A stretch of 64,000 nt of DNA, from assembly GCA_038046385.1 (NCBI GenBank), contig JBBSWH010000004.1, forward strand, positions 9,291 through 73,290, written 5' to 3'. The position numbers were made by a program, and so were the translations under genes. Under the pieces are notes generated by a model, which was given only the letters and a program-made list of their open reading frames with translations, did not search any database and was not told the DNA's origin. Below, one piece after another: positions 5,467-48,931 of the stretch. Within the stretch, counting starts at the first letter, position 1. Every line of letters begins with the position of its first letter. The DNA is from Nanobdellota archaeon. Lineage in GTDB: Archaea; Nanobdellota; Nanobdellia; Woesearchaeales; GW2011-AR4.

Positions 5467-5701
5467 TTACCACCCTGTAAAAAATTGATTCCCCTGCTGT
5501 CGGGCTTTTTCTCGTTATTTTTATGACATCTCCTGGTTTTGTATCGAGATCTTTTATTGCGGAATCTGTCTTGAACATTTTTGGCATTTCCTTAGAAGTT
5601 ACATGATACTTTTCAAATAGGTTTGATTTTTCCTTCTCGCTCAATTTAGAGTGCTTAGGAGTCAGAGTGTGCTTGTCAACCTTAAATTTTACTTTCTTCA
5701 T
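5456..5701 (-). CDS. rpoH: DNA-directed RNA polymerase subunit H (Rpb5-like)
   Basis: 81 aa with C-terminal GDVIKITRKSPTAGESIFYRVV typical of RpoH. It is the first gene of the rpoH-B-A operon. Confidence 0.85.
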   Translation of the reverse strand: MKKVKFKVDKHTLTPKHSKLSEKEKSNLFEKYHVTSKEMPKMFKTDSAIKDLDTKPGDVIKITRKSPTAGESIFYRVVIDV

Positions 5702-23989: not shown

Positions 23990-25750
23990 ATGGAATACTC
24001 GAAGCTTGTTGAGATTTACGAAGCGTTAAACAAGACTACAAAACGTCTGGAAAAGGTGCATATAATATCGGAATTTCTTAAAGACATTAATGTTAATGAA
24101 ATGGAACAAACAGTTCTTCTTCTTGAAGGGAGAGTATTCCCGATTTACGACCAGCGAGAAATAGGCGTTGCATCCAGATCAATGCTGAAGGCCATGAATC
24201 TTGCAACAGGAATAAGTGTTGAACAGATAGAAGCAGAGTGGAAAACCCTTGGCGATCTTGGAATTGTTGCAGAAAAAATTGTAAAAGGCAAAAAACAATA
24301 CACCCTCCATTCTGAAAAACTTTCTGTAAAAAAGGTTTTTGAAAATATTAGAAAGCTTGCTGAGCTTGAAGGGCATGGAACTGTTGACAGAAAAACACAG
24401 CTGATAGCTGAGCTTTTGACATCGGCAACGCCAATAGAGGCAAAATACATTGTAAAAACCGTTCTTAGCGAAATGAGAATTGGCGTTGGTGAAGGTTCTA
24501 TGCGTGATGCAATCACATGGGCATTTTTCGGCAAGGATACCGGAGTCAAATACACAAGGGAAGGAAATGATATAGAAGTTGAAAACCGTGAAGTTTACAA
24601 CAAATATCTTGACGCTGTGCAGCACGCTTATGACATGACAAATGAATTCTATGAAGTTGCAAAAGCCGCTAAATTAAACGGATTGAATGGCCTTGCATCA
24701 ATGAAGATGAAAACAGGCATCCCGATAAAAGTAATGCTTTCATTGAAAACAGACACAATTGAAGAAGGATTTGAAACGGTTGGAAAGCCTGCTGCTTTGG
24801 AATTCAAGTACGATGGATTCAGGATACAGGCGCATAAAGATGGAGATAAAATAACTTTGTTTACAAGACGGCTTGAGAATGTCACAAACCAATTTCCTGA
24901 TATTGTTAAGTTTGTCATGGATAATGTTGACGGAAAATCTTTCATAATTGATTCTGAAGCAGTCGGCTACAATAAAAAAACAGGAAAGTACATGCCGTTC
25001 CAGAACATTTCCCAGAGGATAAAAAGAAAATATGATATTGACAGGATGGCAAATGATTTTCCTGTAGAGCTTAATGTTTTTGACATAATCTCTTATGGCG
25101 GGCAGAGCATGATAAGCGAGCCCTTTGAAAAAAGAAGAAAGCTGCTTGAAAAAATAGTAAAGCAGGAGCCGAAAAAAATAATGCTCTCAAAGATTTTAAT
25201 AACAGAAAGCGAAAAAGACGTTGAAGCATTCTTCAAACAGGCAGTTAATGCAGGAAATGAAGGATTGATGTTCAAATCATTAAGCGCGCCTTACAAGCCA
25301 GGCGCAAGAGTCGGCCATATGATAAAGTTCAAGAGTGTTATGGAAACACTTGACCTTGCCATAACAGGGGCTGACTGGGGAGAAGGCAAAAGATCAAACT
25401 GGCTTTCCAGCTATGCTATTTCGTGCATCAATGAAGATGGCAATTTTGTAGAAATTGGAAGGGTTAGCACAGGATTGAAGGAAAAGGAAGAAGAAGGCCT
25501 AAGTTTTCTTGAGATGACCCGTATTTTGCAGCCGTTGATAATAAAAGAAGAAGGAAAAACAGTTTCAGTAAAGCCAAAGATTGTGATTGAAATCGCATAT
25601 GAGGAGATACAGAAAAGCCCTTCTTACACATCAGGATACGCTTTAAGATTCCCTCGCATAATTTGCCTCAGAGTCGAGAAAGGTCCAGAGGATGTGTCCA
25701 CACTAGACTATGTAGAAAAACTTTACGAGTCCCAAAAGAAGCGTTCTTGA
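23990..25750 (+). CDS. lig: ATP-dependent DNA ligase
   Basis: 586 aa with adenylation motif EFKYDGFRIQAH, then DSEAVGY, EGLMFK and an OB-fold C-terminus. Confidence 0.93.
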   Translation: MEYSKLVEIYEALNKTTKRLEKVHIISEFLKDINVNEMEQTVLLLEGRVFPIYDQREIGVASRSMLKAMNLATGISVEQIEAEWKTLGDLGIVAEKIVKGKKQYTLHSEKLSVKKVFENIRKLAELEGHGTVDRKTQLIAELLTSATPIEAKYIVKTVLSEMRIGVGEGSMRDAITWAFFGKDTGVKYTREGNDIEVENREVYNKYLDAVQHAYDMTNEFYEVAKAAKLNGLNGLASMKMKTGIPIKVMLSLKTDTIEEGFETVGKPAALEFKYDGFRIQAHKDGDKITLFTRRLENVTNQFPDIVKFVMDNVDGKSFIIDSEAVGYNKKTGKYMPFQNISQRIKRKYDIDRMANDFPVELNVFDIISYGGQSMISEPFEKRRKLLEKIVKQEPKKIMLSKILITESEKDVEAFFKQAVNAGNEGLMFKSLSAPYKPGARVGHMIKFKSVMETLDLAITGADWGEGKRSNWLSSYAISCINEDGNFVEIGRVSTGLKEKEEEGLSFLEMTRILQPLIIKEEGKTVSVKPKIVIEIAYEEIQKSPSYTSGYALRFPRIICLRVEKGPEDVSTLDYVEKLYESQKKRS

Positions 25751-25762
25751 ACATTTTATTAA

Positions 25763-25982
25763 CCACTGGACAAAAAAGCACTGGACATCTCTGCCTAAGA
25801 TATATAAATCACTTCTGCCTCTAAAATTAAAAAAGAGGACACACAAAACTGCTAAATAATGATTTTCGGCTTTACCATAAATCAATTATGCAGTTTCGCT
25901 TAACATTCTCTTTTTAAATGAGATTTCCTGTATTAAACACAAGGAAATCTCACGTTAGATGAGCTTTCAAGAGGTAAGTAAA
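25763..25982 (+). repeat. Conserved promoter + structured 5' leader element, copy A
   Basis: CCACTGGACA then CACTGGACATCTCTGCCTAAGATATATAAA (TATA-like box about 25800..25808). P1 strands AAAAAGAGGACACACAAAACTGC (25830..25852) and GCAGTTTCGCTTAACATTCTCTTTTT (25890..25915). P3 hairpin GAGATTTCCT/AGGAAATCTC (25920..25951). GAGGT lies 7 nt before ATG 25983. Confidence 0.8.
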
Positions 25983-27065
25983 ATGGTGATAAGGTTAACT
26001 GACGAACAAAAAGAACAAATCAAAAACAAGTTTCAGGAGTATTTAAGTACAAATAAAACTACAAAAAATATTGCAAATGAATTAGGAGTAGAAAAATCTA
26101 CCGTTGCAAAATTTTATTCTAAATTGTTTGGAGAACAATATAAAAGAATGGCAAAATCAAAGTGTTACCAACATAATACCATATTAAGTGATAATCAAGT
26201 ATTAAAATTGTTTGAAAGGTACAAGAATGGAACTCCCGTAAAAGAATTAGAAAAAATTTCAGGGGTTGGATATGGTTCTTTATGCCCAAGAATGTTAAGG
26301 TTGATTGGAGAAGAATATCAAAAAGTATCTCTAAAAAGAAAGTATGAGAAAGCAGGAAATTTCTATAGAAAAGTGATAGATTTTGATGTAAGAATTGCGT
26401 TTGAAAAGTATAAATCAACTTCAGTATCAACGACCGCATTGGCTGATGAGTTAGGTTTAGCAGAAAGTACACTTATTTTCAGGTTTAAAAAATTGTTTGG
26501 TAACGACTAGGATATTCTTGCATTAAAAAGGAGAAATGAAAGAAAGGTTTCAAAAGAAGATTACATAAAATCTTTTGAAGAATACAAAAATTCCAATATC
26601 TCGTTAACTGACTTAGCAAATAAGCTAAATGTAAGAATTACTTCGCTTCGCACAAGATTTTTGAGGCTATTCGGAGAAGAATATATAGAAATAGCAAAAC
26701 AAAAATCTGATGGGTCTGCGCTAAACCGAAAAGGGGTTAACGCTGAAAATATAGCTTTGGAATATTTGAAAACAAAAGGCCATGTTATAAGTGATGTAAG
26801 ACATAAGGCAATTCTCAAAGGAACCTTAAAAAGGCCTGATTTTGTGATTGATAACACTTTTGTGGAAGTTAAGAATAACTACATAAATCTTAATAAGAAA
26901 AGAGTAAAGGGCTATTTGCAAATTATAGGAGATTACCTAGGGAAAGAAACAAAAGAAGGGAAAATATTGACAAAAGGCATTATAATTTCTTTAGGTGGCT
27001 TTTCTCAAGAAGTCAGGAAGAAAGCAGAAGAAGATGGAATAACTTTGATTGATTTGAAAAAATAG
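25983..27065 (+). pseudogene. 4x HTH-repeat + C-terminal PD-(D/E)xK nuclease protein interrupted by a single in-frame TAG (26508..26510). Either a pseudogene or a read-through gene.
   Basis: Track ORFs 25959..26510 and 26661..27065 share one frame, and 26511..26660 is open. Four repeats end KLFGEQY / RLIGEEY / KLFGND* / RLFGEEY. The fourth repeat begins before the TTG 'start' at 26661. The C-terminus has RPDFVIDNTFVEVK (PD...ExK). Confidence 0.7.
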
Positions 27066-27110
27066 AATTCTCACCAAACCTTTAAATAGCCCTATTTATT
27101 CCTCATTCTT

Positions 27111-27579: not shown

Positions 27580-28173
27580 TTATTTTTTATTCTGCAATGA
27601 TTCTTTATCTGCTCTTCCGGAATATAAGCTTTCGAGCCTTCCGCTTAAAGTTGATTGCAGATATTTATAAATTTTGTACGGATCATCAATGTATTTTAAT
27701 TCGTCGTACATTGTTCTTGTCTGAATTTGGCTTGGAGTGTACCCTCCGCCTTGTGTGCGCATGCCGCCGGTTGAATACGTCTGTGTTTTGCCGACGTCGA
27801 TTTTTACAGTTCCGACAGAAAACATTTTACCAATAATTCCAACATCAACCAACAGGTTTTTTATTTCATTGAAATAAATAGACTTAAAGTCAGTTCCAAT
27901 CAATCCTGATTTTATTAAAATTCTTTTTTGGGTTACGGCATATTCTTTTATCCTGTTTGAAAAAAACTGAAACAATGATAAAATTATGCCTAAAGCAATG
28001 ACCGCAGCCCCGTACATCTTAGGAAAAGATGTGGCAGCAATCAAATAAGTCCCAATCGATAAGATTATCAGCAATGAAAATATCAAACCAAAATTAAGAA
28101 CTTTTCTGTTTATAATGCCGCGCCAAACTATCTTTTCGCTGGGTTCCAGAACTGCATTAATATCTGCATCCAT
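27580..28173 (-). CDS. Membrane protein with bacterial PH (bPH_2/YdbS-like) domain
   Basis: 197 aa. Two TM helices followed by YAVTQKRILIKSGLIGTDFKSIYFNEIKNL, typical of the DUF304/bPH_2 family. Confidence 0.6.
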   Translation of the reverse strand: MDADINAVLEPSEKIVWRGIINRKVLNFGLIFSLLIILSIGTYLIAATSFPKMYGAAVIALGIILSLFQFFSNRIKEYAVTQKRILIKSGLIGTDFKSIYFNEIKNLLVDVGIIGKMFSVGTVKIDVGKTQTYSTGGMRTQGGGYTPSQIQTRTMYDELKYIDDPYKIYKYLQSTLSGRLESLYSGRADKESLQNKK

Positions 28174-28257
28174 TTAAACGATAATAAAATAACGCATATA
28201 TATATATATCGATTTAAAAATAAATAAAAAAGAAGGAAAAAATAAATTTACGTCCCT

Positions 28258-28325
28258 GCCAATGCCAACCTTTTGCGAAAAGCTTGGCCAAAAGCGTGGG
28301 TTTCGCTACGCTCAAGCCCACTAAC
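28258..28325. repeat. GC-rich 68-bp structured insert flanked by 9-bp direct repeats (MITE-like) at the 3' end of ahcY
   Basis: TACGTCCCT occurs at 28249..28257 and at 28326..28334; the latter overlaps the last ahcY codons and abuts its stop codon. The insert folds (minus strand) into GTGGG...CCCAC and GCCAAGCTTTTCGCAAAAGGTTGGC hairpins. Confidence 0.45.
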
Positions 28326-36186: not shown

Positions 36187-36228
36187 TTTATATTCTAAAG
36201 AGTAATCATTTAAAAATATTCTCATCTA

Positions 36229-36417
36229 CCACTGGACATCCTCACCTAAGGTTTATAAAGCAATTCTGCTTCTGAAAACTGAAAAAGAGAACACGCAAAA
36301 CTGCCAAATTATGATTTTTGCTTATAAGCCAAAAATCAATTATACAGTTTCGCTTAACATCCTCTTTTTCCTGAACTCCAAAGTTCCAGAAGTCAGAAAC
36401 TTTGGAGGTTGATTAAA
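36229..36417 (+). repeat. Conserved promoter + structured 5' leader element, copy B
   Basis: CCACTGGACATCCTCACCTAAGGTTTATAAAG (TATA box 36252..36259). P1 36282..36304 / 36344..36369. P2 hairpin GATTTTTGCTTATAAGCCAAAAATC (36313..36337). P3 CCAAAGTT/AACTTTGG (36378..36405) overlaps GGAGGT (36404..36409). ATG at 36418. Confidence 0.85.
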
Positions 36418-37578
36418 ATGAATGAAGATAAAATACAAATAACATTGGAAGATTTTCCAGATGATATCTATATTCTTTTAGAAGATAATTTTAGGGCAGA
36501 TTTCTTCAAAACTGCTTGGAAAATAAACAAAAGTTACAGGCACTTGGCTAAAAAGGTTGGAGTTTCCAATCCAGTCATGCTTTCTTGGAGAAGAGGAAGG
36601 ATTAATTTTACCAACCAAGACCAATTTTGCCCTGTTTGGGCTATAAAAGAGATAATAAACTACTCTAAGCATGATTCTGAATGGAAATTTTATTTGGATG
36701 AAGTACAAAAACACGTAAAATCAATAAGATGCAAGGCAGGCACTTACAAAATCTACAATGTTAAGCTGCCAATATATGATTCAATAGAGCTAAGGGAAAT
36801 TGTAACACACCTTATTTGTGATGGCTCGGCTTTAAATGAAAAGTATAGGACATCTAAATATGCTTCCACCAGTTTAAAAACTGTAAACGAAATAAAGAAA
36901 AAATTGTCAATATTTGGAGAAACTCCTAATTTAATTATTAGGAAAGAAACCTACACAAATCATTATTTGCCACTTTATGTATTAAATTTTTCCAAAGCTA
37001 TAACCAAAATTTTGACTGCTAAATTCAATATCGACTTTAGAGGGGATAAAGCAAGAATGCCTAAAGAGTTTTTTGTAGGGGAAAGAAAGTTATTAGTTGC
37101 AATTGTTAGGGCATTCTTAATTGATGAAGGATGTATAAGGGACAGAAATATTAACTTTTGTTCTGGGAGTGTGGAACTGCTTGAAGATTTAAAGCAAATT
37201 TGCCTTTTGCTAGACTATAAATGTCAAAATATAAGAAAAAGTGGTGGAACTTACTATCTAAATATTTCTCCAGACTCATTTACCAAAGTTTATGGGGATT
37301 TGGATTTGTTTGGTAAACTTCCTATTGCAGATAAACAGGAAAGATTGGATTTAGGAATAAAAATAATCAATAATTCACCAGATTTTCATAGTCTGGATAA
37401 TGATTTATTGTTAAATTTGAAAAGCCCAATTACAACTTTAGAGCTTTCTAAGAGATTACTAATAAACGGAAAAACAATAACTGAAAGATTAAACAAGATG
37501 CAAAAATTAGGGCTTGTTGAAAGAAATGTTAACAGAAACTTAGGAAAAGGCGGTTCTTTTAGCTGGAAGGTTCTTTAG
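36418..37578 (+). CDS. Free-standing double-motif LAGLIDADG homing-endonuclease-like protein with N-terminal HTH and C-terminal wHTH
   Basis: Track ORF 36409..37578 (TTG start); the ATG at 36418 is preferred. LAGLIDADG-type motifs are EIVTHLICDGSA and AIVRAFLIDEGCI. C-terminal TTLELSKRLLINGKTITERLNKMQKLGLVER. The 3' end overlaps the topA 3' end by 20 bp. Confidence 0.8.
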   Translation: MNEDKIQITLEDFPDDIYILLEDNFRADFFKTAWKINKSYRHLAKKVGVSNPVMLSWRRGRINFTNQDQFCPVWAIKEIINYSKHDSEWKFYLDEVQKHVKSIRCKAGTYKIYNVKLPIYDSIELREIVTHLICDGSALNEKYRTSKYASTSLKTVNEIKKKLSIFGETPNLIIRKETYTNHYLPLYVLNFSKAITKILTAKFNIDFRGDKARMPKEFFVGERKLLVAIVRAFLIDEGCIRDRNINFCSGSVELLEDLKQICLLLDYKCQNIRKSGGTYYLNISPDSFTKVYGDLDLFGKLPIADKQERLDLGIKIINNSPDFHSLDNDLLLNLKSPITTLELSKRLLINGKTITERLNKMQKLGLVERNVNRNLGKGGSFSWKVL

Positions 37579-39799
37579 CTTCATCTGAGGGTTTATTATT
37601 AGTTAATTTCTCAGTATAACGGCATTTAGGAAATTTATTACAGGCGTAAAACTTTCCGTAAATCGAGCTTCTTAATACAATATCGCCTTCATTGCATTTC
37701 GGGCATTTTCTCTTTATCTCGCCTTTTGCAATCGCTTTTGCTTCTTCTCCTGCTTCACCTGCTACGTGCTTTGTGGAACATTTCGGATTCAAACAGAATT
37801 CAAGCGGCTGCTTGCCTTTCTTTATCGCAAGCACCATTGGATACTTGCAAGTTTCGCATTCTTTCTTAGCAGGTTTTATCAAAGCGTTTTTTGGTATTGA
37901 AAAAATAGTCTTGCAGTCCGGATATTTGTTGCACGCCGCAAAAGCCCCAAACTTTCCGCGGCGCATTGTTATGTTTCCGAGCTTGCATATCGGGCATATC
38001 CCGAGAAAAGACATTTCATCCTGCGTCTCCTTGTTTGCCTTTGACAGTTCAGTTCCTATCTCCTTCTGGTGCTTCTTAAAATCAATTAATATTTTTGTGA
38101 TAGCCTCTTTAGCCTCTTCCAGAACCTGATCTTTTTTCTGCTTGCCTTCCCTTATGCCTTCCATTTCAAGCTCAAAGTGCCTAGTCAGTTCTTCATCTAT
38201 TATTTTAGGTGAATATTTCTCAAGGGTTTCTATTGTTGACACTCCAAGCTGTGTGGCTTCTATCGGGGTTCCTTTTACATATCCCCTATTGAATAGTGTA
38301 TCAACAATTTCAGAGCGCGTTGCCTTTGTCCCGAGATTTCTTCTTTCAAGCTCTTTTATTATTGAAGCAGGCGTGTATCTTTTTGCGTGCTGTGTTTCCT
38401 TCGACAATAATTCTATTTTCCCAATATTCACTTTTTGCCCCTGCCTTAAATCTGGAAGCTCTATTTCTTCCAGTTTTACATAAGGCTCATAGAATTTGTG
38501 CCACCCTTTTTCTATTGTTCTTGTGCCTCTTGTTATGAAAATTTCATTGTTGCAGTTTAAGTCTACAGTCATTGTCTCTCTTACTGCATTCTCTGCAAAC
38601 GTTGCCATGAACCTCTTTACAATAATATCATAGATTTTTGCTTCCTTTGCCTCAAGCTCGTTTGGAGCAATTCCAGTCGGATAAAGCGCAGGGTGCGCAG
38701 GGTCTGTCTTTTTGCCGTTGTTTGGCTTGAGGGATTTTTTTGCTGTAAGCAGCTTGACAGATGCAGCATATTTTGCCTGCTTTCCTAAGCCGTCAAATAT
38801 CTTCTTATAGCCTATTGACTCCGGCAGCTGCTGGCTTGATGTTCTTGGATAAGAAATGAAACTTGAAGTGTAAAGCTCCTGCGCAATAGAAAGTGTTTCT
38901 TTTGGAGATATTCCGAAGCATCTGTAAGCCTCAATCTGCAATGATGTTAAATCGAACGGAAACGGAGGCATCTGGTCAAATTTTCTTCTTTCAACCTCGT
39001 CAGCATTTGCTTCTTTCTGGCTTTTTGTTTTGGCAATTGATTTCTCAGCTTCCTTTTTGTCCCAGAATTTGTCCTGCACATGCCAAGCTTCCATCTTCTG
39101 CTGCTTAAAATTTGCGTCCATCCTTATCTGCCAAAACGGCTTTGGAACAAATGCCTTGATTTCCTTTTCCCTGTCTACAATTATCTTCAGCGAGGGTCCT
39201 TGAACCCTGCCGGTTGACATTATCTTGAATGATCCTGATGATTTTATTGATGCTGTAAGCGCCCTTGAATAGTTAATTCCATTATACCAGTCCAGAAAAT
39301 GGCGCGTTTCTCCGGCCTCTGCCTGACCCCAGTCAAGGTGCTTGCTTTTTTTTGAATATGCTTCCCTTAGCTCATCTTTTGTCAATGTTGAGAACTTCAT
39401 CCTGTATGCATCTTTCTTGCCGCAAGCGTACCTTATGACATTTAATCCGATTACTTCCCCTTCCTGGTCATAATCTGTTGCAACTGTGTATTCGTTTGCG
39501 CCTTTTGCGAGCTTCTTTATTGTATTAAGATATTTTTTTGTAAACTCTGATCCCCTGACATTTTCAGAAACCGGCTTCCATTCTATGTCAAACATAGGAT
39601 ATGTCCATCCTTTCTTTTGCCTTTCACACAGCCCATAAAGATGGCCTACAGCGCACGTAACAACAATATCCTTCTTGCCATGGGTAATCTTATAGTAAGC
39701 AACGCCCTGATTAACCTCTTTTATCGCCTTTCCATCAGTAAGTGATTCTGCTATTTTCTGAGCAGCAGCCGGCTTTTCTGTGATGATTAACTCATACAT
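37559..39799 (-). CDS. topA: DNA topoisomerase I (type IA) with C-terminal zinc ribbons
   Basis: 746 aa. Toprim start YELIITEKP, active-site region FISYPRTSSQQLP, and C-terminal CPICK/CETCK/CPKCN zinc-ribbon repeats. Confidence 0.92.
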   Translation of the reverse strand: MYELIITEKPAAAQKIAESLTDGKAIKEVNQGVAYYKITHGKKDIVVTCAVGHLYGLCERQKKGWTYPMFDIEWKPVSENVRGSEFTKKYLNTIKKLAKGANEYTVATDYDQEGEVIGLNVIRYACGKKDAYRMKFSTLTKDELREAYSKKSKHLDWGQAEAGETRHFLDWYNGINYSRALTASIKSSGSFKIMSTGRVQGPSLKIIVDREKEIKAFVPKPFWQIRMDANFKQQKMEAWHVQDKFWDKKEAEKSIAKTKSQKEANADEVERRKFDQMPPFPFDLTSLQIEAYRCFGISPKETLSIAQELYTSSFISYPRTSSQQLPESIGYKKIFDGLGKQAKYAASVKLLTAKKSLKPNNGKKTDPAHPALYPTGIAPNELEAKEAKIYDIIVKRFMATFAENAVRETMTVDLNCNNEIFITRGTRTIEKGWHKFYEPYVKLEEIELPDLRQGQKVNIGKIELLSKETQHAKRYTPASIIKELERRNLGTKATRSEIVDTLFNRGYVKGTPIEATQLGVSTIETLEKYSPKIIDEELTRHFELEMEGIREGKQKKDQVLEEAKEAITKILIDFKKHQKEIGTELSKANKETQDEMSFLGICPICKLGNITMRRGKFGAFAACNKYPDCKTIFSIPKNALIKPAKKECETCKYPMVLAIKKGKQPLEFCLNPKCSTKHVAGEAGEEAKAIAKGEIKRKCPKCNEGDIVLRSSIYGKFYACNKFPKCRYTEKLTNNKPSDEAKEPSS

Positions 39800-41719: not shown

Positions 41720-41723
41720 AAAA

Positions 41724-41826
41724 CGCCCCTCCGGGGAATTGAACCCCGATCTTAAGCTGTTTTCAAGCGAAATTGCTGGATTTTCGCTGCCGCAAGCTCA
41801 TGTGCTATCCGTTATACCAGAGGGAC
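41724..41826 (-). tRNA. tRNA-Arg(GCG) with a 31-nt intron at the canonical 37/38 position
   Basis: Minus strand reads GTCCCTCTGGTATAACGGATAGCACATGAGCTTGCGG[CAGCGAAAATCCAGCAATTTCGCTTGAAAAC]AGCTTAAGATCGGGGTTCAATTCCCCGGAGGGGCG. Anticodon arm is TGAGC-TTGCGGA-GCTTA. The intron contains the AGCGAAA/TTTCGCT helix. Confidence 0.8.
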
Positions 41827-41935
41827 ACTATTAATATATAGGTAGAAACTGCTTTTTTATAAAGCTTCTCAGATATCAATTTCACCACTCACCTATAGTA
41901 ACAAAATAGAAAGATTTATAAATAGGGAAAAAAGG

Positions 41936-42847
41936 ATGTTTGTTATGGCACTTGATGATTTATTAAACAACCTGTCAAATCCCTCTACAAAACAAGTTCT
42001 TGATGGGTTGCAAGAAGCAGTAGTCATTACAGGGGTAGATGGATCAATACTTTACGCCAATAGTCAATTTTCAAAAATTGTACAGGCTTATTATGGAAAA
42101 GAAAATCCACATGGCAGAAATTTATTTGGGGATTATAACTTTGAAGCAAAAGATCAAAAAGCCGCTCTCCTTGAAGAATGTGTAAGCAGTGGACTGGCAA
42201 AACAATCTAGAAGAGTTGTATATGTAAGGGATGATAAAAGTGAGCATTATTACAATATAAGGATGGAGCCGTTAAAAGGTGCTAATGAAAAAGTAGAAGG
42301 TGTCCAAGTAGGGTTTGTAGATGTAACTAACGAGGTTTTAGAGGCTATAAAAGATGAATTAACTGGCGCATTTACGAAAAATCATTATTTAAGGCAATTA
42401 TTTCCTACAGAAAGCGCTAGGGCTATTAGAGCTAAAAGGAGCGGTTCTGAGAAAGAGTCTTATTTAGGAGTCATTGTAGGGGATTTGCAGGATTTCAAAA
42501 AAGTTAATGATACATTGGGCCATTCTATTGGTGATGATATACTAAAAAGAACAGCAAGTTTAATGATGGAAAGTGTAAGGCCAACAGATTATGTAATAAG
42601 GTTTGGAGGAGATGAATTTTGCGTCTTGCTTCCAAATACGGATCAAGCAGCCGCAAATCAGGTTATGGCAAGAATAAATTCTAATATTAAAAAATATAAT
42701 AGGGGAATAAGAAATCCACTCATGCAAATCAAAATGAATTTTGGAGTGCTATCAGATAATGATAATTATGAGGGTATTTTGGAAAAAGCTGATGCTTTTA
42801 TGTATGCCAATAAAAGAGGAGCAAAAGAAAAGGGTACTCCTCCATAA
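41936..42847 (+). CDS. PAS-like sensor + GGDEF diguanylate cyclase domain protein
   Basis: 303 aa. N-terminal PAS-like LQEAVVITGVDGSILYANSQFSKI. GGDEF domain is GDLQDFKKVNDTLGHSIGDDIL ... RPTDYVIRFGGDEFCVLLP, with an intact GGDEF motif and RxxD five residues upstream. Confidence 0.85.
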   Translation: MFVMALDDLLNNLSNPSTKQVLDGLQEAVVITGVDGSILYANSQFSKIVQAYYGKENPHGRNLFGDYNFEAKDQKAALLEECVSSGLAKQSRRVVYVRDDKSEHYYNIRMEPLKGANEKVEGVQVGFVDVTNEVLEAIKDELTGAFTKNHYLRQLFPTESARAIRAKRSGSEKESYLGVIVGDLQDFKKVNDTLGHSIGDDILKRTASLMMESVRPTDYVIRFGGDEFCVLLPNTDQAAANQVMARINSNIKKYNRGIRNPLMQIKMNFGVLSDNDNYEGILEKADAFMYANKRGAKEKGTPP

Positions 42848-47704: not shown

Positions 47705-47892
47705 CCACTGGACATCTCCGCCTAAGATATATAAAGGAGATTTACTTATAAAACTGAAAAAGAGAACACGCAAAACTGCTAAATTAAGTCTTTTGGTCTT
47801 TGACGCAAAAGCCTATTACGCAGTTTCGCTTCAAATTCTCTTTTTACTTAAATCCAAAGTTCCAAGAGTCAGAAACTTTGGAGGTGTCTAAT
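47705..47892 (+). repeat. Conserved promoter + structured 5' leader element, copy C
   Basis: CCACTGGACATCTCCGCCTAAGATATATAAAGG (TATA-like 47726..47734). P1 47757..47779 / 47820..47845. P2 CTTTTGGTCTTTGACGCAAAAG (47790..47811). P3 CCAAAGTT/AACTTTGG (47854..47881) overlaps GGAGGT (47880..47885). ATG at 47893. Confidence 0.85.
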
Positions 47893-48681
47893 ATGAAAGC
47901 GTTAAGTCAGGAGGAAATTGAGCAGATTTGTGGATTGTATAAAGAACATGGTAGTGTTAGGGCTGTAATAAAAAGAATGCCTGTGAGTAATGGGTCAGCA
48001 CACAAATATCTAACTTTAAAACACTTAATCAGAAAACAAAATATCGTCAGGGAATTAAAAACCCATGATGAGAGATTAATTGGGGTTTATGTTGGTCTTT
48101 GGATGGGTGATGGAACTCAGTACAAAGATGGGCATAGCTACACTATCAAAATATGCACAAATAGCGATGATGTAAACCTAAATAAATTTGTCAAAGATCT
48201 CATAATCCTAGTTTTTAATAAGAATACTTCATTGTTTAAGGAAAGGCACAGGAAAAGCGCTTATATAAAATTCAGCTCTAGGTTTATTTTTGAATTCATT
48301 CATGATTATGTTGTTTATGATGAAAAGAAGAAAACATATACTGTAGGGCTAAGGAAAAGGGCTAATGCATATCCAAAAGAATTTCGTGAAGGATGCTTGC
48401 TGGGTTTAGCATTAAGTGATGGATATCTTAAAAATAATTTTGTTTTTACTGTTTCATCTGCCAGATTGGCTAGAAATATGTATGATTTATTGGCCGGATT
48501 TAGGTACAATCCCTGTTCAAGCTTAGATAGGAGAGAAAAATACCACAACAACATCATGTATTCAATAAAGCTTACTAAGCCAGATAGCATGGCTTTGAAT
48601 GTCTTTTTAGACAAAGTCATTAGAAGTTTAGGATATACTTATTCTTTTAAGGAATTGAAATATGGGCCCGGTGAGATTTGA
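47893..48681 (+). CDS. Free-standing double-motif LAGLIDADG homing-endonuclease-like protein (second, non-orthologous copy)
   Basis: Track ORF 47800..48681 (TTG start) reads through the conserved leader. SD + ATG at 47893 (MKALSQEEIEQI...) is preferred. Motifs are IGVYVGLWMGDGTQ and CLLGLALSDGYL, with an N-terminal HTH-like segment. The last 19 bp overlap the 3' end of tRNA-Ile. Confidence 0.8.
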   Translation: MKALSQEEIEQICGLYKEHGSVRAVIKRMPVSNGSAHKYLTLKHLIRKQNIVRELKTHDERLIGVYVGLWMGDGTQYKDGHSYTIKICTNSDDVNLNKFVKDLIILVFNKNTSLFKERHRKSAYIKFSSRFIFEFIHDYVVYDEKKKTYTVGLRKRANAYPKEFREGCLLGLALSDGYLKNNFVFTVSSARLARNMYDLLAGFRYNPCSSLDRREKYHNNIMYSIKLTKPDSMALNVFLDKVIRSLGYTYSFKELKYGPGEI

Positions 48682-48751
48682 ACTCATGGCCTCACGATAT
48701 CAGACTGAATGATATCAGTCGTGCGCTCTAACCAAGCTGAGCTACGGGCCC
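48663..48751 (-). tRNA. tRNA-Ile(GAU) with a 14-nt intron at or near the canonical position
   Basis: Minus strand reads GGGCCCGTAGCTCAGCTTGGTTAGAGCGCACGACTGATA[TCATTCAGTCTGAT]ATCGTGAGGCCATGAGTTCAAATCTCACCGGGCCCA. Confidence 0.85.
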
Positions 48752-48802
48752 GTAGTTTTGAAGAAATTATGCCGATTTATAAAGCTTGTTGAGAATAAAA
48801 AA

Positions 48803-48891
48803 CGCCCCCGGTCAGACTCGAACTGACGACCTTATCGTCTCTCTGAATAAATCATAACAGCGATACGCTCTACCTGCTGAGCTACAGGGGC
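48803..48891 (-). tRNA. tRNA-Asn(GUU) with a 16-nt intron at the canonical position
   Basis: Minus strand reads GCCCCTGTAGCTCAGCAGGTAGAGCGTATCGCTGTTA[TGATTTATTCAGAGAG]ACGATAAGGTCGTCAGTTCGAGTCTGACCGGGGGCG. Confidence 0.85.
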
Positions 48892-48931
48892 ATAATTAAA
48901 AGGATAAAAATTCTATTTAAAAAGCTTTAGC

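Follow-up and report, generated by a model that had tools for sequence, protein, structure and literature searches.

Three intergenic cassettes of common design lie in the 64-kb window (the whole stretch of 64,000 nucleotides analysed here), each made up of a ~190-nt block and an open reading frame on the + strand. The block leads from an upstream box, CCACTGGACAT, through a TATA box, a ~90-nt hairpin (P1) and a second hairpin (P2), which in the general layout pairs with GGAGGT, to an ATG. The blocks lie at 25763..25982, 36229..36417 and 47705..47892, as had been proposed in the initial annotation, and their motifs exceed chance: AAAAAGAGRACACRCAAAACTGC is matched three times in the window against 0 expected by chance, and CACTGGACATC-N4-CCTAAG three times against 0.08 expected. 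The exact CACTGGACA was confined to the three blocks in a search of the window, occurring twice in copy 1, and a covariance model (CM) search of the window found no fourth copy. The Shine-Dalgarno (SD) sequence, annotated as GGAGGT or GAGGT 7-8 nt before the ATG, has that spacing in all three copies: AGAGGT 25970-25975 with ATG at 25983 in copy 1, GGAGGT 36404-36409 with ATG at 36418 in copy 2, and GGAGGT 47880-47885 with ATG at 47893 in copy 3.

In cassette 2, the box CCACTGGACAT occupies 36229..36239, about -52 to -42 from the putative transcription start, and is followed by the TATA box TTTATAAA (36252..36259), by P1 (36281..36370; fold energy -22.3 kcal/mol, z-score -5.7, with covariation) and by P2 (CUCCAAAGUU...AACUUUGGAG, 36376..36407), which takes in the first four bases of the SD. 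From base to tip, P1 consists here of a stem GAAAAAGAGAA/UCCUCUUUUUC, an internal loop, a stem GCAAAACUG/CAGUUUCGC with an A.C mismatch, and a variable apical stem. Cassette 3 has the same elements: CCACTGGACAT at 47705..47715, the TATA box ATATATAAA at 47727..47735, P1 at 47756..47846 (fold energy -26.3 kcal/mol, z-score -4.9) and, at 47853..47883, a P2 predicted to occlude the SD. Cassette 1, which as a whole covers 25763..27065, is a variant form, with a duplicated upstream box (CACTGGACA-N6-CACTGGACATC, 25764..25789), the TATA box ATATATAAA (25800..25808), P1 (25829..25916; fold z-score -4.9, CM match of 110.5 bits) and a different second hairpin, GAGATTTCC...GGAAATCTC (25919..25952), which leaves the SD outside. 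The same second-hairpin variant is found in L151 (loci outside the window are given by their L numbers). Box duplication of the kind seen in cassette 1 is also present in L019, L031, L038 and several metagenome copies.

The three reading frames encode different proteins. ORF1 (25983..27065), interrupted by an in-frame TAG at 26508-26510, carries four HTH repeats and an Mrr/PD-(D/E)xK-like domain, whose match to Mrr_cat is weak and below the cutoff (E 1.8e-3); its intact homologues are 383-390 aa long and 46-69% identical to it, and by its sequence it is probably a decaying homing-endonuclease gene. ORF2 (36418..37578) is a protein of 386 aa in which an N-terminal region is followed by two LAGLIDADG motifs and, at the C-terminus, by a winged HTH; LAGLIDADG_3 matches it weakly (E 1.4e-3), though both motifs are visible. 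It converges on topA (37559-39799, - strand), the 3′ end of which shares the last 20 nt of ORF2. ORF3 (47893..48681) is a 262-aa protein with an N-terminal HTH followed by an I-DmoI-like monomeric double-LAGLIDADG endonuclease, and its last 19 nt overlap in antisense the 3′ end of a tRNA-Ile(GAU) gene (48663..48751, - strand). PDB searches with each of the three single sequences returned nothing useful, and only the ORF3 family profile gave a match, to I-DmoI (E=1e-10), along residues 13-182, that is, nearly full length, with the acidic residue kept in both LAGLIDADG motifs of the family. The cargo types first assigned, 4xHTH + PD-(D/E)xK and double LAGLIDADG, including the 386-aa protein, were borne out, except that the copy 1 frame is broken. 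Likewise, the three ORFs are not orthologues and BLASTP detects no similarity among them, although ORF2 and ORF3 do belong to one superfamily (LAGLIDADG). None sits in an intron or intein context, as had also been noted: each is intergenic with its own TATA box, SD and ATG, and Rfam finds no intron.

The leader extends far beyond the window. Two independent DNA-pattern scans gave 126 distinct copies in genomes of Woesearchaeota/Nanoarchaeota (DPANN) and in groundwater metagenomes; 50 copies come from 49 Woesearchaeota/Nanoarchaeota stretches (contigs of about 30 assemblies), with eight in one assembly, and the scan with a pattern free of P1b sequence yielded 91 metagenome stretches. Because both scans demanded a near-consensus leader sequence, diverged or ORF-less copies may have escaped them; a CM search for diverged or solo copies returned only known ones and antisense echoes. 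The P1b pattern had 0 matches in viral contigs, which leaves a virus-borne origin unsupported. At gathering score, Rfam 15 matched only tRNA and 5S sequences in the window and 40 loci, and a permissive scan (E up to 10) of 36200-36440 reached at best E 0.19, with chance miRNA and snoRNA matches. Inspection of P1 by eye found no bulge-helix-bulge, kink-turn, H/ACA or C/D box motif. The leader thus has no Rfam match, in keeping with the initial annotation, which did not recognise it as a known RNA family, and literature searches returned no description of it, nor of free-standing endonuclease genes in Woesearchaeota.

Along the 126 copies, conservation rises and falls with the elements of the block. 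Sequence 5′ of the box is at background and so is the ORF, while the box is conserved at 90% or more, the TATA box at 70-99%, the spacer from TATA box to P1 at 35-70%, the P1 arms at 90% or more, the P1 apex at about 55%, and the P2 arms and SD again at 90% or more; SD, SD-ATG spacer and ATG are all conserved within one block. Such module-by-module constraint is a poor fit to recent copying. The spacing is regular: almost every copy has 59-62 nt between the box and the ACAC downstream of it, and the centre of the TATA box lies about 26 nt 5′ of the P1 base. From this promoter geometry we infer that transcription would start at the base of P1 and that the leader would exist as RNA.

Both hairpins are supported by covariation in the aligned copies. 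RNAalifold on a MAFFT alignment retained only 11 pairs owing to register shifts; the structure was drawn by hand, its pairs were counted, and it was then checked on an independent, CM-aligned set. Paired cells amount to 90.5% and 92.5% in the two sets, against 35-59% when the partners are slid. Compensatory changes are found at positions 36-82 (UA31/AU19) and 43-75 (CG20/UA15) and, in the independent set, at 28-105 (GC66/CG11/UA3) and 37-98 (AU41/UA40). In P2, the pairing of the SD is kept with different sequences in L013 and L037. Around ten copies bear an extra apical branch in P1, which shows the apex to be permissive. The SD forms part of the 3′ arm of P2 in cassettes 2 and 3 and in most copies, cassette 1 and L151 being the exceptions. 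The suggestion of a shared cis-regulatory RNA fits this evidence. A short upstream reading frame in the leader was considered and rejected: cassette 2 has a 34-codon ATG...TGA frame, and about 40% of the copies have AAG in place of that ATG.

The paired arms P1a and P1b are conserved in sequence far beyond what pairing accounts for. This could be taken to mean that P1 is a small RNA gene of its own, acting in trans and running from the box promoter to the U5 tract, with the nucleases riding on read-through or targeting it as they target tRNA genes; the extent of P1, from the putative transcription start to CUCUUUUU, and its multiplicity, up to eight per assembly, would agree with it. Nevertheless, all 53 of the 53 copies retrieved with the P1b-only pattern have an SD and an ORF at fixed distance together with P2 or a hairpin equivalent to it, a covariance model search of 0.82 Mb yielded no P1 on its own, and SD, spacer and ATG are conserved in the same block as P1, so that we regard a trans-acting RNA as decidedly improbable.

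A regulatory switch would also place P1 at the centre, as a sensor that is either a riboswitch aptamer or the target of a specific regulatory protein. Once occupied, it would open or shut P2 or lift termination at the U5 tract, and so make the expression of the endonuclease respond to a cellular signal. The U5 tract that closes P1 is known to signal termination in archaea, P1 has invariant basal stems and junctions under a permissive and covarying apex, the SD-containing hairpin follows directly 3′, and in cassette 1 and L151 the duplicated arm GAGATTTC could form a mutually exclusive hairpin. What the leader has in common with riboswitches and ribosomal-protein leaders is a conserved structure that covaries, has junction nucleotides that do not change, and precedes a hairpin containing the SD. 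It differs from them in that a search of its common form found no conserved pairing by which P1 and P2 would exclude each other, the two hairpins folding independently; it has no Rfam match, and the genes it precedes are selfish-element nucleases that show no ligand logic and include no metabolic or transport set hinting at a ligand. A 6-nt complementarity between the P1c 3′ strand (AAUCAA) and the SD-ATG spacer (UUGAUU) was considered and rejected, as it does not covary. On balance a switch seems rather unlikely.

The cargo behind the leader is diverse. An ORF lies at fixed distance behind every copy, and a copy without a downstream ORF, which would have spoken against the initial annotation, was found neither in the near-consensus scans nor in the CM searches. 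LAGLIDADG_3 is matched by 82 of 117 ORFs (~70%), while the remaining ones include HNH_repeat (E 5e-55) and Mrr_cat/PDDEXK proteins; BLASTP sorts the first 53 ORFs into 17 clusters, and decayed ORFs occur among the cassettes. It holds in the window and throughout the 126 copies that one conserved non-coding promoter and leader precede different free-standing nuclease genes. Furthermore, leader identity is 69-92% regardless of how the ORFs are related, and the ORF1 family occurs with the leader (in the window and L151) and, in other lineages, without it (L148-L150 and L152). For these two reasons, the leader reads as an exchangeable module whose similarity is independent of that of the ORFs, in keeping with the portable promoter/leader module proposed at the outset.

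This diversity bears on the idea, also raised in the initial annotation, that the RNA works together with the nucleases, as a cofactor or guide like the omega RNA of IscB/TnpB or HEARO RNA. The one point in its favour is that a structured RNA is linked in the genome with nuclease genes. However, one RNA stands before at least three unrelated folds (LAGLIDADG, HNH-repeat and PD-(D/E)xK), unlike omega RNA and HEARO, where it serves one family, and LAGLIDADG enzymes such as I-DmoI, which ORF3 matches, read DNA through the protein itself. Moreover, there is no target-specific single-stranded variable segment: the sole variable part of the RNA is its base-paired apex, which occurs in few types common to families with different neighbours, and ORF1 homologues of other lineages use leaderless promoters. 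A guide-RNA role is thus very unlikely and close to refuted.

The families differ in the genes they adjoin. The ORF1 family is found at the 3′ end of lig at four loci in three contexts (L148/L149, L150 and L152), in tandem and convergent orientations; the ORF2 family adjoins topA at its 3′ end, with orthologues beside topA in L070, L108 and L113; and the ORF3 family lies at tRNA-Ile, an L099 orthologue having the same arrangement, so that this tRNA gene is presumed, from its position, to be the target or anchor gene of that family. More broadly, 21 of 99 copies have a tRNA T-loop motif close to the stop of the ORF, the background being 1.8%. A presence/absence comparison covers cassette 1: in the close relative L145 (ligase 90% identical in amino acids), the syntenic site lacks window positions 25741-27076, the 1336 nt being replaced by 326 unrelated nt between flanks that are 83-88% identical. 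Comparison at the lig locus, recommended with the initial annotation, thereby bounds the cassette. Its other test, for IS or MITE ends, gave neither terminal inverted repeats joining the two ends of any cassette nor target-site duplication at the cassette 1 boundaries defined by L145.

The lack of such ends is also relevant to the possibility that the palindrome works as DNA, whether as an insulator, as a bidirectional terminator (A-tract, hairpin, T-tract) or as a structure that pauses replication or promotes recombination and so aids the copying and exchange of cassettes. Leaders do appear to be exchanged between cassettes, AAAAAGAG...CTCTTTTT is shaped like a bidirectional terminator, and A.C mismatches are roughly as common in the stems as G.U, as would be expected if both strands matter. 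Since G.U pairs are no commoner than A.C, and the conserved A.C mismatch of P1b is G.U on the opposite strand, wobble asymmetry fails to confirm the + strand as the folded one. Nevertheless, branch insertions make the distance between the arms vary between about 45 and 85 nt, as suits a single strand that folds rather than a binding site in duplex DNA. The palindrome is also fixed in position and orientation with respect to TATA box, SD and ATG, and the cassette ends show neither terminal inverted repeats nor target duplications. A role at the DNA level has little probability in our judgement.

The explanation that we favour, and consider fairly probable, is that the three blocks are copies of a lineage-wide expression head, one that free-standing homing-endonuclease genes carry in DPANN archaea of the Woesearchaeota type. 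The cassettes show features expected of such genes: a nuclease of a homing-endonuclease superfamily, expression signals of their own, a family-specific neighbour and, for cassette 1, an empty site. The head would have three parts, namely an archaeal promoter with the conserved box CCACTGGACAT, a probable transcription factor site, ahead of its TATA box; P1, a ~90-nt hairpin from the putative first transcribed base to the U5 tract; and P2, a short hairpin with the SD as its 3′ arm. Transcription would be tied to the regulon of the box, and the occlusion of the SD by P2 would keep a potentially toxic nuclease at low translation, the leader probably being a structured 5′ UTR that limits translation. 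P1, with its invariant basal stems and internal loops, might be a 5′ stabiliser or attenuator, and/or a platform bound by a host factor that determines the level of expression. Predicted P2 stability is only moderate (-10 to -13 kcal/mol). The predicted probability that the SD is unpaired is similar for window control genes with SD-like sites (median 0.22 vs 0.20), so that SD occlusion, judged by folding prediction alone, is not distinctive. Different nuclease families would have gained the head and would swap it by recombination, and each promoter-leader-ORF unit would have as its neighbour a conserved host gene (lig, topA, MCM, tRNA-Ile or tRNA-Pro) presumably cut by the nuclease in unoccupied genomes, as in the intronless homing of the seg and mob genes of phage T4.

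In T-even phages, I-TevI, I-TevII, I-TevIII, segB and mobE are controlled by hairpins that sequester the ribosome binding site (PMC2988022). The leader resembles these in that an SD of consensus type, with the start codon about 8 nt after it, is buried in a hairpin directly 5′ of endonuclease ORFs of different families (PMC2988022). It differs in that its host is archaeal and its location chromosomal and not phage, in that the hairpin sequence itself is conserved in more than 100 genes of many species, and in having two further conserved elements, a ~90-nt hairpin at the 5′ end and a promoter box upstream. It also differs in that no late promoter is seen inside it by which the SD could be freed: inspection for a second promoter within the hairpin region found no conserved TATA-like element about 25 nt 5′ of the P2 3′ arm. 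As to the genes, the cassettes are comparable to T4 seg/mob genes, among them SegB in a tRNA gene cluster, as intergenic endonuclease genes outside introns and inteins that adjoin conserved genes, including tRNA genes, are present or absent in relatives and have decayed copies (PMC2988022, PMC2330249). Unlike the seg/mob enzymes, those of the cassettes are mostly LAGLIDADG and not GIY-YIG or HNH, and, as putative homing enzymes, they lie in cellular DPANN genomes, with up to eight or more per assembly. The ORF3 family likewise approaches I-DmoI, an archaeal LAGLIDADG enzyme of rRNA introns; in contrast to it, the cassette genes are not intron-encoded and have their own promoter, leader and SD, and their proteins carry extra N-terminal HTH or C-terminal winged-HTH domains.

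The box CCACTGGACAT is not restricted to the cassettes, as it precedes, without the leader, MCM, a Cas4/Dna2-like nuclease, DUF5131 and a PolB-exonuclease-like match that is weak and below the cutoff. That it is common to MCM and repair genes suggests a testable link with replication or repair. A bolder and more tentative proposal, possible although doubtful, sees in P1 a new class of regulatory RNA in archaea that would serve selfish nuclease genes as sensor or protein dock and, together with the box, would tie all homing endonucleases of a DPANN cell to one host signal. If so, this signal might be, e.g., replication or DNA-repair status, and the homing endonucleases would form a regulon at the level of the host or of the elements.

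On the comparisons made here, the leader is a conserved, previously undescribed putative control module for homing-endonuclease genes in these archaea. To our knowledge, few structured cis-regulatory RNAs have been described from archaea and hardly any from DPANN lineages, and free-standing homing-endonuclease elements are little described in cellular archaeal chromosomes. The tiny DPANN genomes contain many such genes, each beside an essential or tRNA gene. With more than 120 natural variants that covary, the leader is ready for structural and biochemical work, and the fact that unrelated nuclease families have converged on, or swapped, one promoter-leader module offers a route to studying how hosts tolerate selfish nucleases. 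It can serve as a marker for finding these genes, and it also accounts for assembly breaks at these sites.

The three promoter-plus-leader blocks of the window, each heading a nuclease gene (ORF1, ORF2 and ORF3 of cassettes 1, 2 and 3), lie where the initial annotation had placed them and align with one another over ~190 nt. In the 64 kb of the window, each of their two longest common strings is found three times, where chance would give 0 to 0.08; the exact string CACTGGACA was confined to the blocks in a search of the window, and a covariance model search found no fourth copy there. Each block ends, as claimed, with (G/A)GAGGT 7-8 nt 5′ of an ATG. The genes that follow, encoding a 4xHTH + PD-(D/E)xK-like protein (ORF1) and two LAGLIDADG proteins (ORF2 and ORF3), are indeed unlike each other, with no BLASTP similarity among the three. 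ORF1, the gene of cassette 1 (25763..27065), is interrupted: it carries an in-frame TAG at 26508-26510, at the Tyr position of the consensus (K/R)L(F/I)GE(E/Q)Y of its fourfold HTH repeat; the frame is open for 184 codons beyond it, and intact homologues have 383-390 aa. An endonuclease gene in decay has probably acquired this TAG recently, as a nonsense mutation.

In cassette 2 a conserved box (CCACTGGACAT, 36229-36239) is separated by a BRE-like sequence of ~12 nt from the TATA box (36252-36259), which is followed by a variable spacer of 21 nt, the hairpin P1 (36281-36370; stems P1a, P1b and P1c), a linker of 5-8 nt and a second hairpin, P2 (36376-36407), whose 3′ arm is formed by the first four bases of GGAGGT; this Shine-Dalgarno sequence (SD) stands 8 nt before the ATG at 36418. 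The centre of the TATA box lies ~26 nt from the start of P1, where established promoter geometry would place the expected archaeal transcription start; P1 is 5′-terminal on the inferred transcript, and its 3′ end is U5. Predicted folding energies are -20 to -26 kcal/mol for P1, with z-scores of -4.9 to -5.7, and -10 to -13 kcal/mol for P2; the SD is not predicted to be more occluded than in control genes. The SD-ATG spacing described for cassette 1 holds; its SD lies outside the second hairpin. In hairpins of this type (window 25919-25975; homologous stretch L151, 115-170), a near-duplicate of the 5′ arm (GAGATTTC in L151, GAGCTTTC in the window) follows just 5′ of the SD and could form an alternative pairing with the 3′ arm. 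A candidate upstream ORF in the cassette 2 leader (34 codons, ATG...TGA, 36311-36412, ending at the SD) has AAG for ATG in ~40% of copies and is probably not conserved.

With a pattern demanding P1b only, and each species represented by a single genome, 50 copies were found on 49 stretches from ~30 assemblies, nearly all labelled Woesearchaeota or Nanoarchaeota (a few labels look wrong), with a maximum of eight copies in one assembly; viral contigs gave zero matches to the P1b pattern. The window itself belongs among Woesearchaeota-type DPANN archaea, on the basis of its intron-bearing tRNA genes (three of three: 48663-48751, 48802-48892 and 41723-41827, all on the minus strand), its TATA-type promoters and its ligase homologues labelled Woesearchaeota or Nanoarchaeia. 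A metagenome scan, with a pattern lacking P1b, returned 91 stretches, and the two scans and the window together provide 126 distinct copies. Per-column conservation among these is sharp-edged, with background levels 5′ of the box and 3′ of the ATG: the box, the arms of P1, the arms of P2 and the SD all reach 90% or more, the TATA box 70-99%, the apex of P1 ~55% and the spacer between TATA box and P1 35-70%, columns fixed by a search pattern being uninformative within that pattern's set. The modules are therefore under purifying selection: copies made recently, or homogenised by gene conversion, would not combine fixed modules with a free spacer and apex. Contigs often start or stop within the promoter or leader (starts of L004, whose first bases are AAAAAGAGAACAC, L035 and L042; many short metagenome contigs). 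Short-read assemblies are probably broken by the ~190-nt repeat, and copies per MAG would therefore be underestimated.

When a hand-drawn structure is imposed on an alignment of 52 copies, 90.5% of cells are paired, against 35-59% with partners slid, and 17 pairs have changes on both sides. The metagenome set, aligned to the model and contributing nothing to its building, gives 92.5% against 37-58%. There, one pair of P1b, outside the metagenome search pattern, is GC66/CG11/UA3, and P1c covaries as AU41/UA40, UA56/CG12 and CG38/UA24. P1b also holds a conserved A.C mismatch, and SD pairing is retained in L013 and L037 by unrelated sequences. In about ten copies the P1 apex bears an additional branch of two hairpins; the functional core is therefore the P1 base, i.e., both stems and the two internal loops. 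In the stems G.U is not enriched over A.C, and wobble counts therefore do not single out the + strand as the one that folds. The leader, which the initial annotation could not assign to a known RNA family, matches none in Rfam, permissive thresholds included.

The association with a downstream gene extends to all further copies, an ORF standing at a fixed distance behind every one. Pfam LAGLIDADG_3 is present in 30 of 48 and 52 of 69 ORFs, HNH_repeat (Pfam) in three (E down to 5e-55), Mrr_cat or PDDEXK matches in a few, and additional HTH domains in many; the first 53 ORFs form 17 BLASTP clusters. The ORF3 family profile matches I-DmoI over nearly its full length (E=1e-10). Of 105 complete ORFs, nine have fewer than 150 aa and, together with ORF1 of the window, look like decaying copies. 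The ORF1 homologues of L148-L150 and L152 have neither box nor leader and begin ~25 nt 3′ of a TATA-like element; that of L151 (69% identical) has the full leader with the window's variant second hairpin. Moreover, leader identity is 69-80% between same-genome cassettes with unrelated ORFs and 70-92% between orthologous cassettes of different genomes, independent of ORF identity, and the leader of ORF2 in the window has an apical type unlike that of its three orthologues. Exchange of leaders between cassettes is the simplest reading of these sequences.

Outside the cassettes, CCACTGGACAT with a TATA box, devoid of P1 and P2, is found upstream of genes of four further kinds: MCM (E 8e-89), a Cas4/Dna2-like PD-(D/E)xK nuclease (E 2e-11), DUF5131 (gp37/gp68-like; E 2e-92) and a PolB-exonuclease-like protein (weak). 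These leaderless sites are at L039 4604-4700, L047 3711-3800, L131 11425, L144 2452, L009 789 (-) and L029 (-). Within the window the box is confined to the cassettes, and it is therefore no general promoter feature but a promoter element of the regulon type, which the endonuclease genes share with genes for replication and repair; this suggests a common replication/repair regulon. A transcription factor probably binds the box.

The suggestion that the RNA works with the nucleases, as guide or cofactor, is very unlikely: three unrelated folds have the same RNA, no part of this RNA is single-stranded and specific to a target, and some relatives lack the leader. The block most likely serves as an expression head that acts in cis: the box would link transcription to a replication/repair-type regulon, P2 would hold the SD paired, and P1 would probably act as a stabiliser or attenuator, as the place where a host factor docks, or as both. 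No conserved alternative pairing of the kind that would make P1 a classical riboswitch was found; a riboswitch is a less likely possibility. By analogy, P2 would resemble the structures that keep the SD paired in T-even phage endonuclease genes (PMC2988022). Regulated free-standing homing-endonuclease genes with SD-occluding hairpins are thus the known kind to which the cassettes belong; new are the archaeal chromosomal setting, the conservation of a single leader in many species and nuclease families, the further conserved motif P1, absent from Rfam, and the promoter box in common. The leader is not described in the literature searched.

At cassette 1, L145 offers an empty site: its ligase is 90% identical to that of the window, the flanks are 83-88% identical (DNA), and 326 unrelated nt stand in place of window 25741-27076, i.e., box through ORF1 stop plus 11 nt. 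A bPH_2-domain gene (27580-28173, minus strand) is also missing from the otherwise syntenic L145, window 27590-28324 being a second indel near cassette 1. The initial annotation had considered IS or MITE ends; no such ends were found, the cassettes having neither terminal inverted repeats nor target duplications. Intact ORF1 homologues in L148/L149, L150 and L152 lie at the DNA ligase 3′ end, convergent and overlapping by 4-24 nt, and the window's ORF1 cassette is in tandem with the ligase. ORF2 homologues in L070, L108, L113 and L079 are located between a 149-aa gene and the topA 3′ end. A different LAGLIDADG cassette is found upstream of topA and divergent from it in L129 (3-596), and topA is therefore flanked at either end in different genomes. 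ORF3 overlaps the 3′ end of tRNA-Ile(GAU) (48663-48751, minus strand) in antisense with its final 19 nt, and the L099 homologue is likewise convergent with tRNA-Ile(GAU); HNH-repeat cassettes in L039 and L047 lie 3′ of MCM, and tRNA-Pro adjoins the cassette in L007, L034 and L053. Furthermore, 21 of 99 ORF stops have a tRNA T-loop motif at -60 to +150 nt, the background being 1.8%.

In all this the cassettes fit what is described for the T4 seg and mob genes, whose free-standing homing endonucleases spread by intronless homing (PMC2988022); for the cassettes, cleavage and homing are putative. SegB, one of the T4 enzymes, is reported to lie in a tRNA gene cluster (PMC2330249).

The tRNA-Pro(UGG) genes stand directly 3′ of the cassette ORFs (L007 4265-4358; L034 ~5520-5620; L053 downstream of 6363, minus strand); the 5′ part of the tRNA (AGCCCCGTAG...) contains the stop codon of the ORF in L007 and L034. 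A short intron splits the tRNA in the D arm, at a non-canonical position that differs between genomes; this intron could disrupt the endonuclease target and hence provide self-immunity. In relatives, inteins with LAGLIDADG_3 are present in DNA ligase (924-926 aa forms) and in CDC48 (P0114, P0117; L147 7699-11761), and intein-borne and free-standing endonucleases would therefore target the same conserved genes. The window also contains a gene (41936-42847) for a PAS_9 + GGDEF (diguanylate-cyclase-type) protein, which is unusual for archaea.
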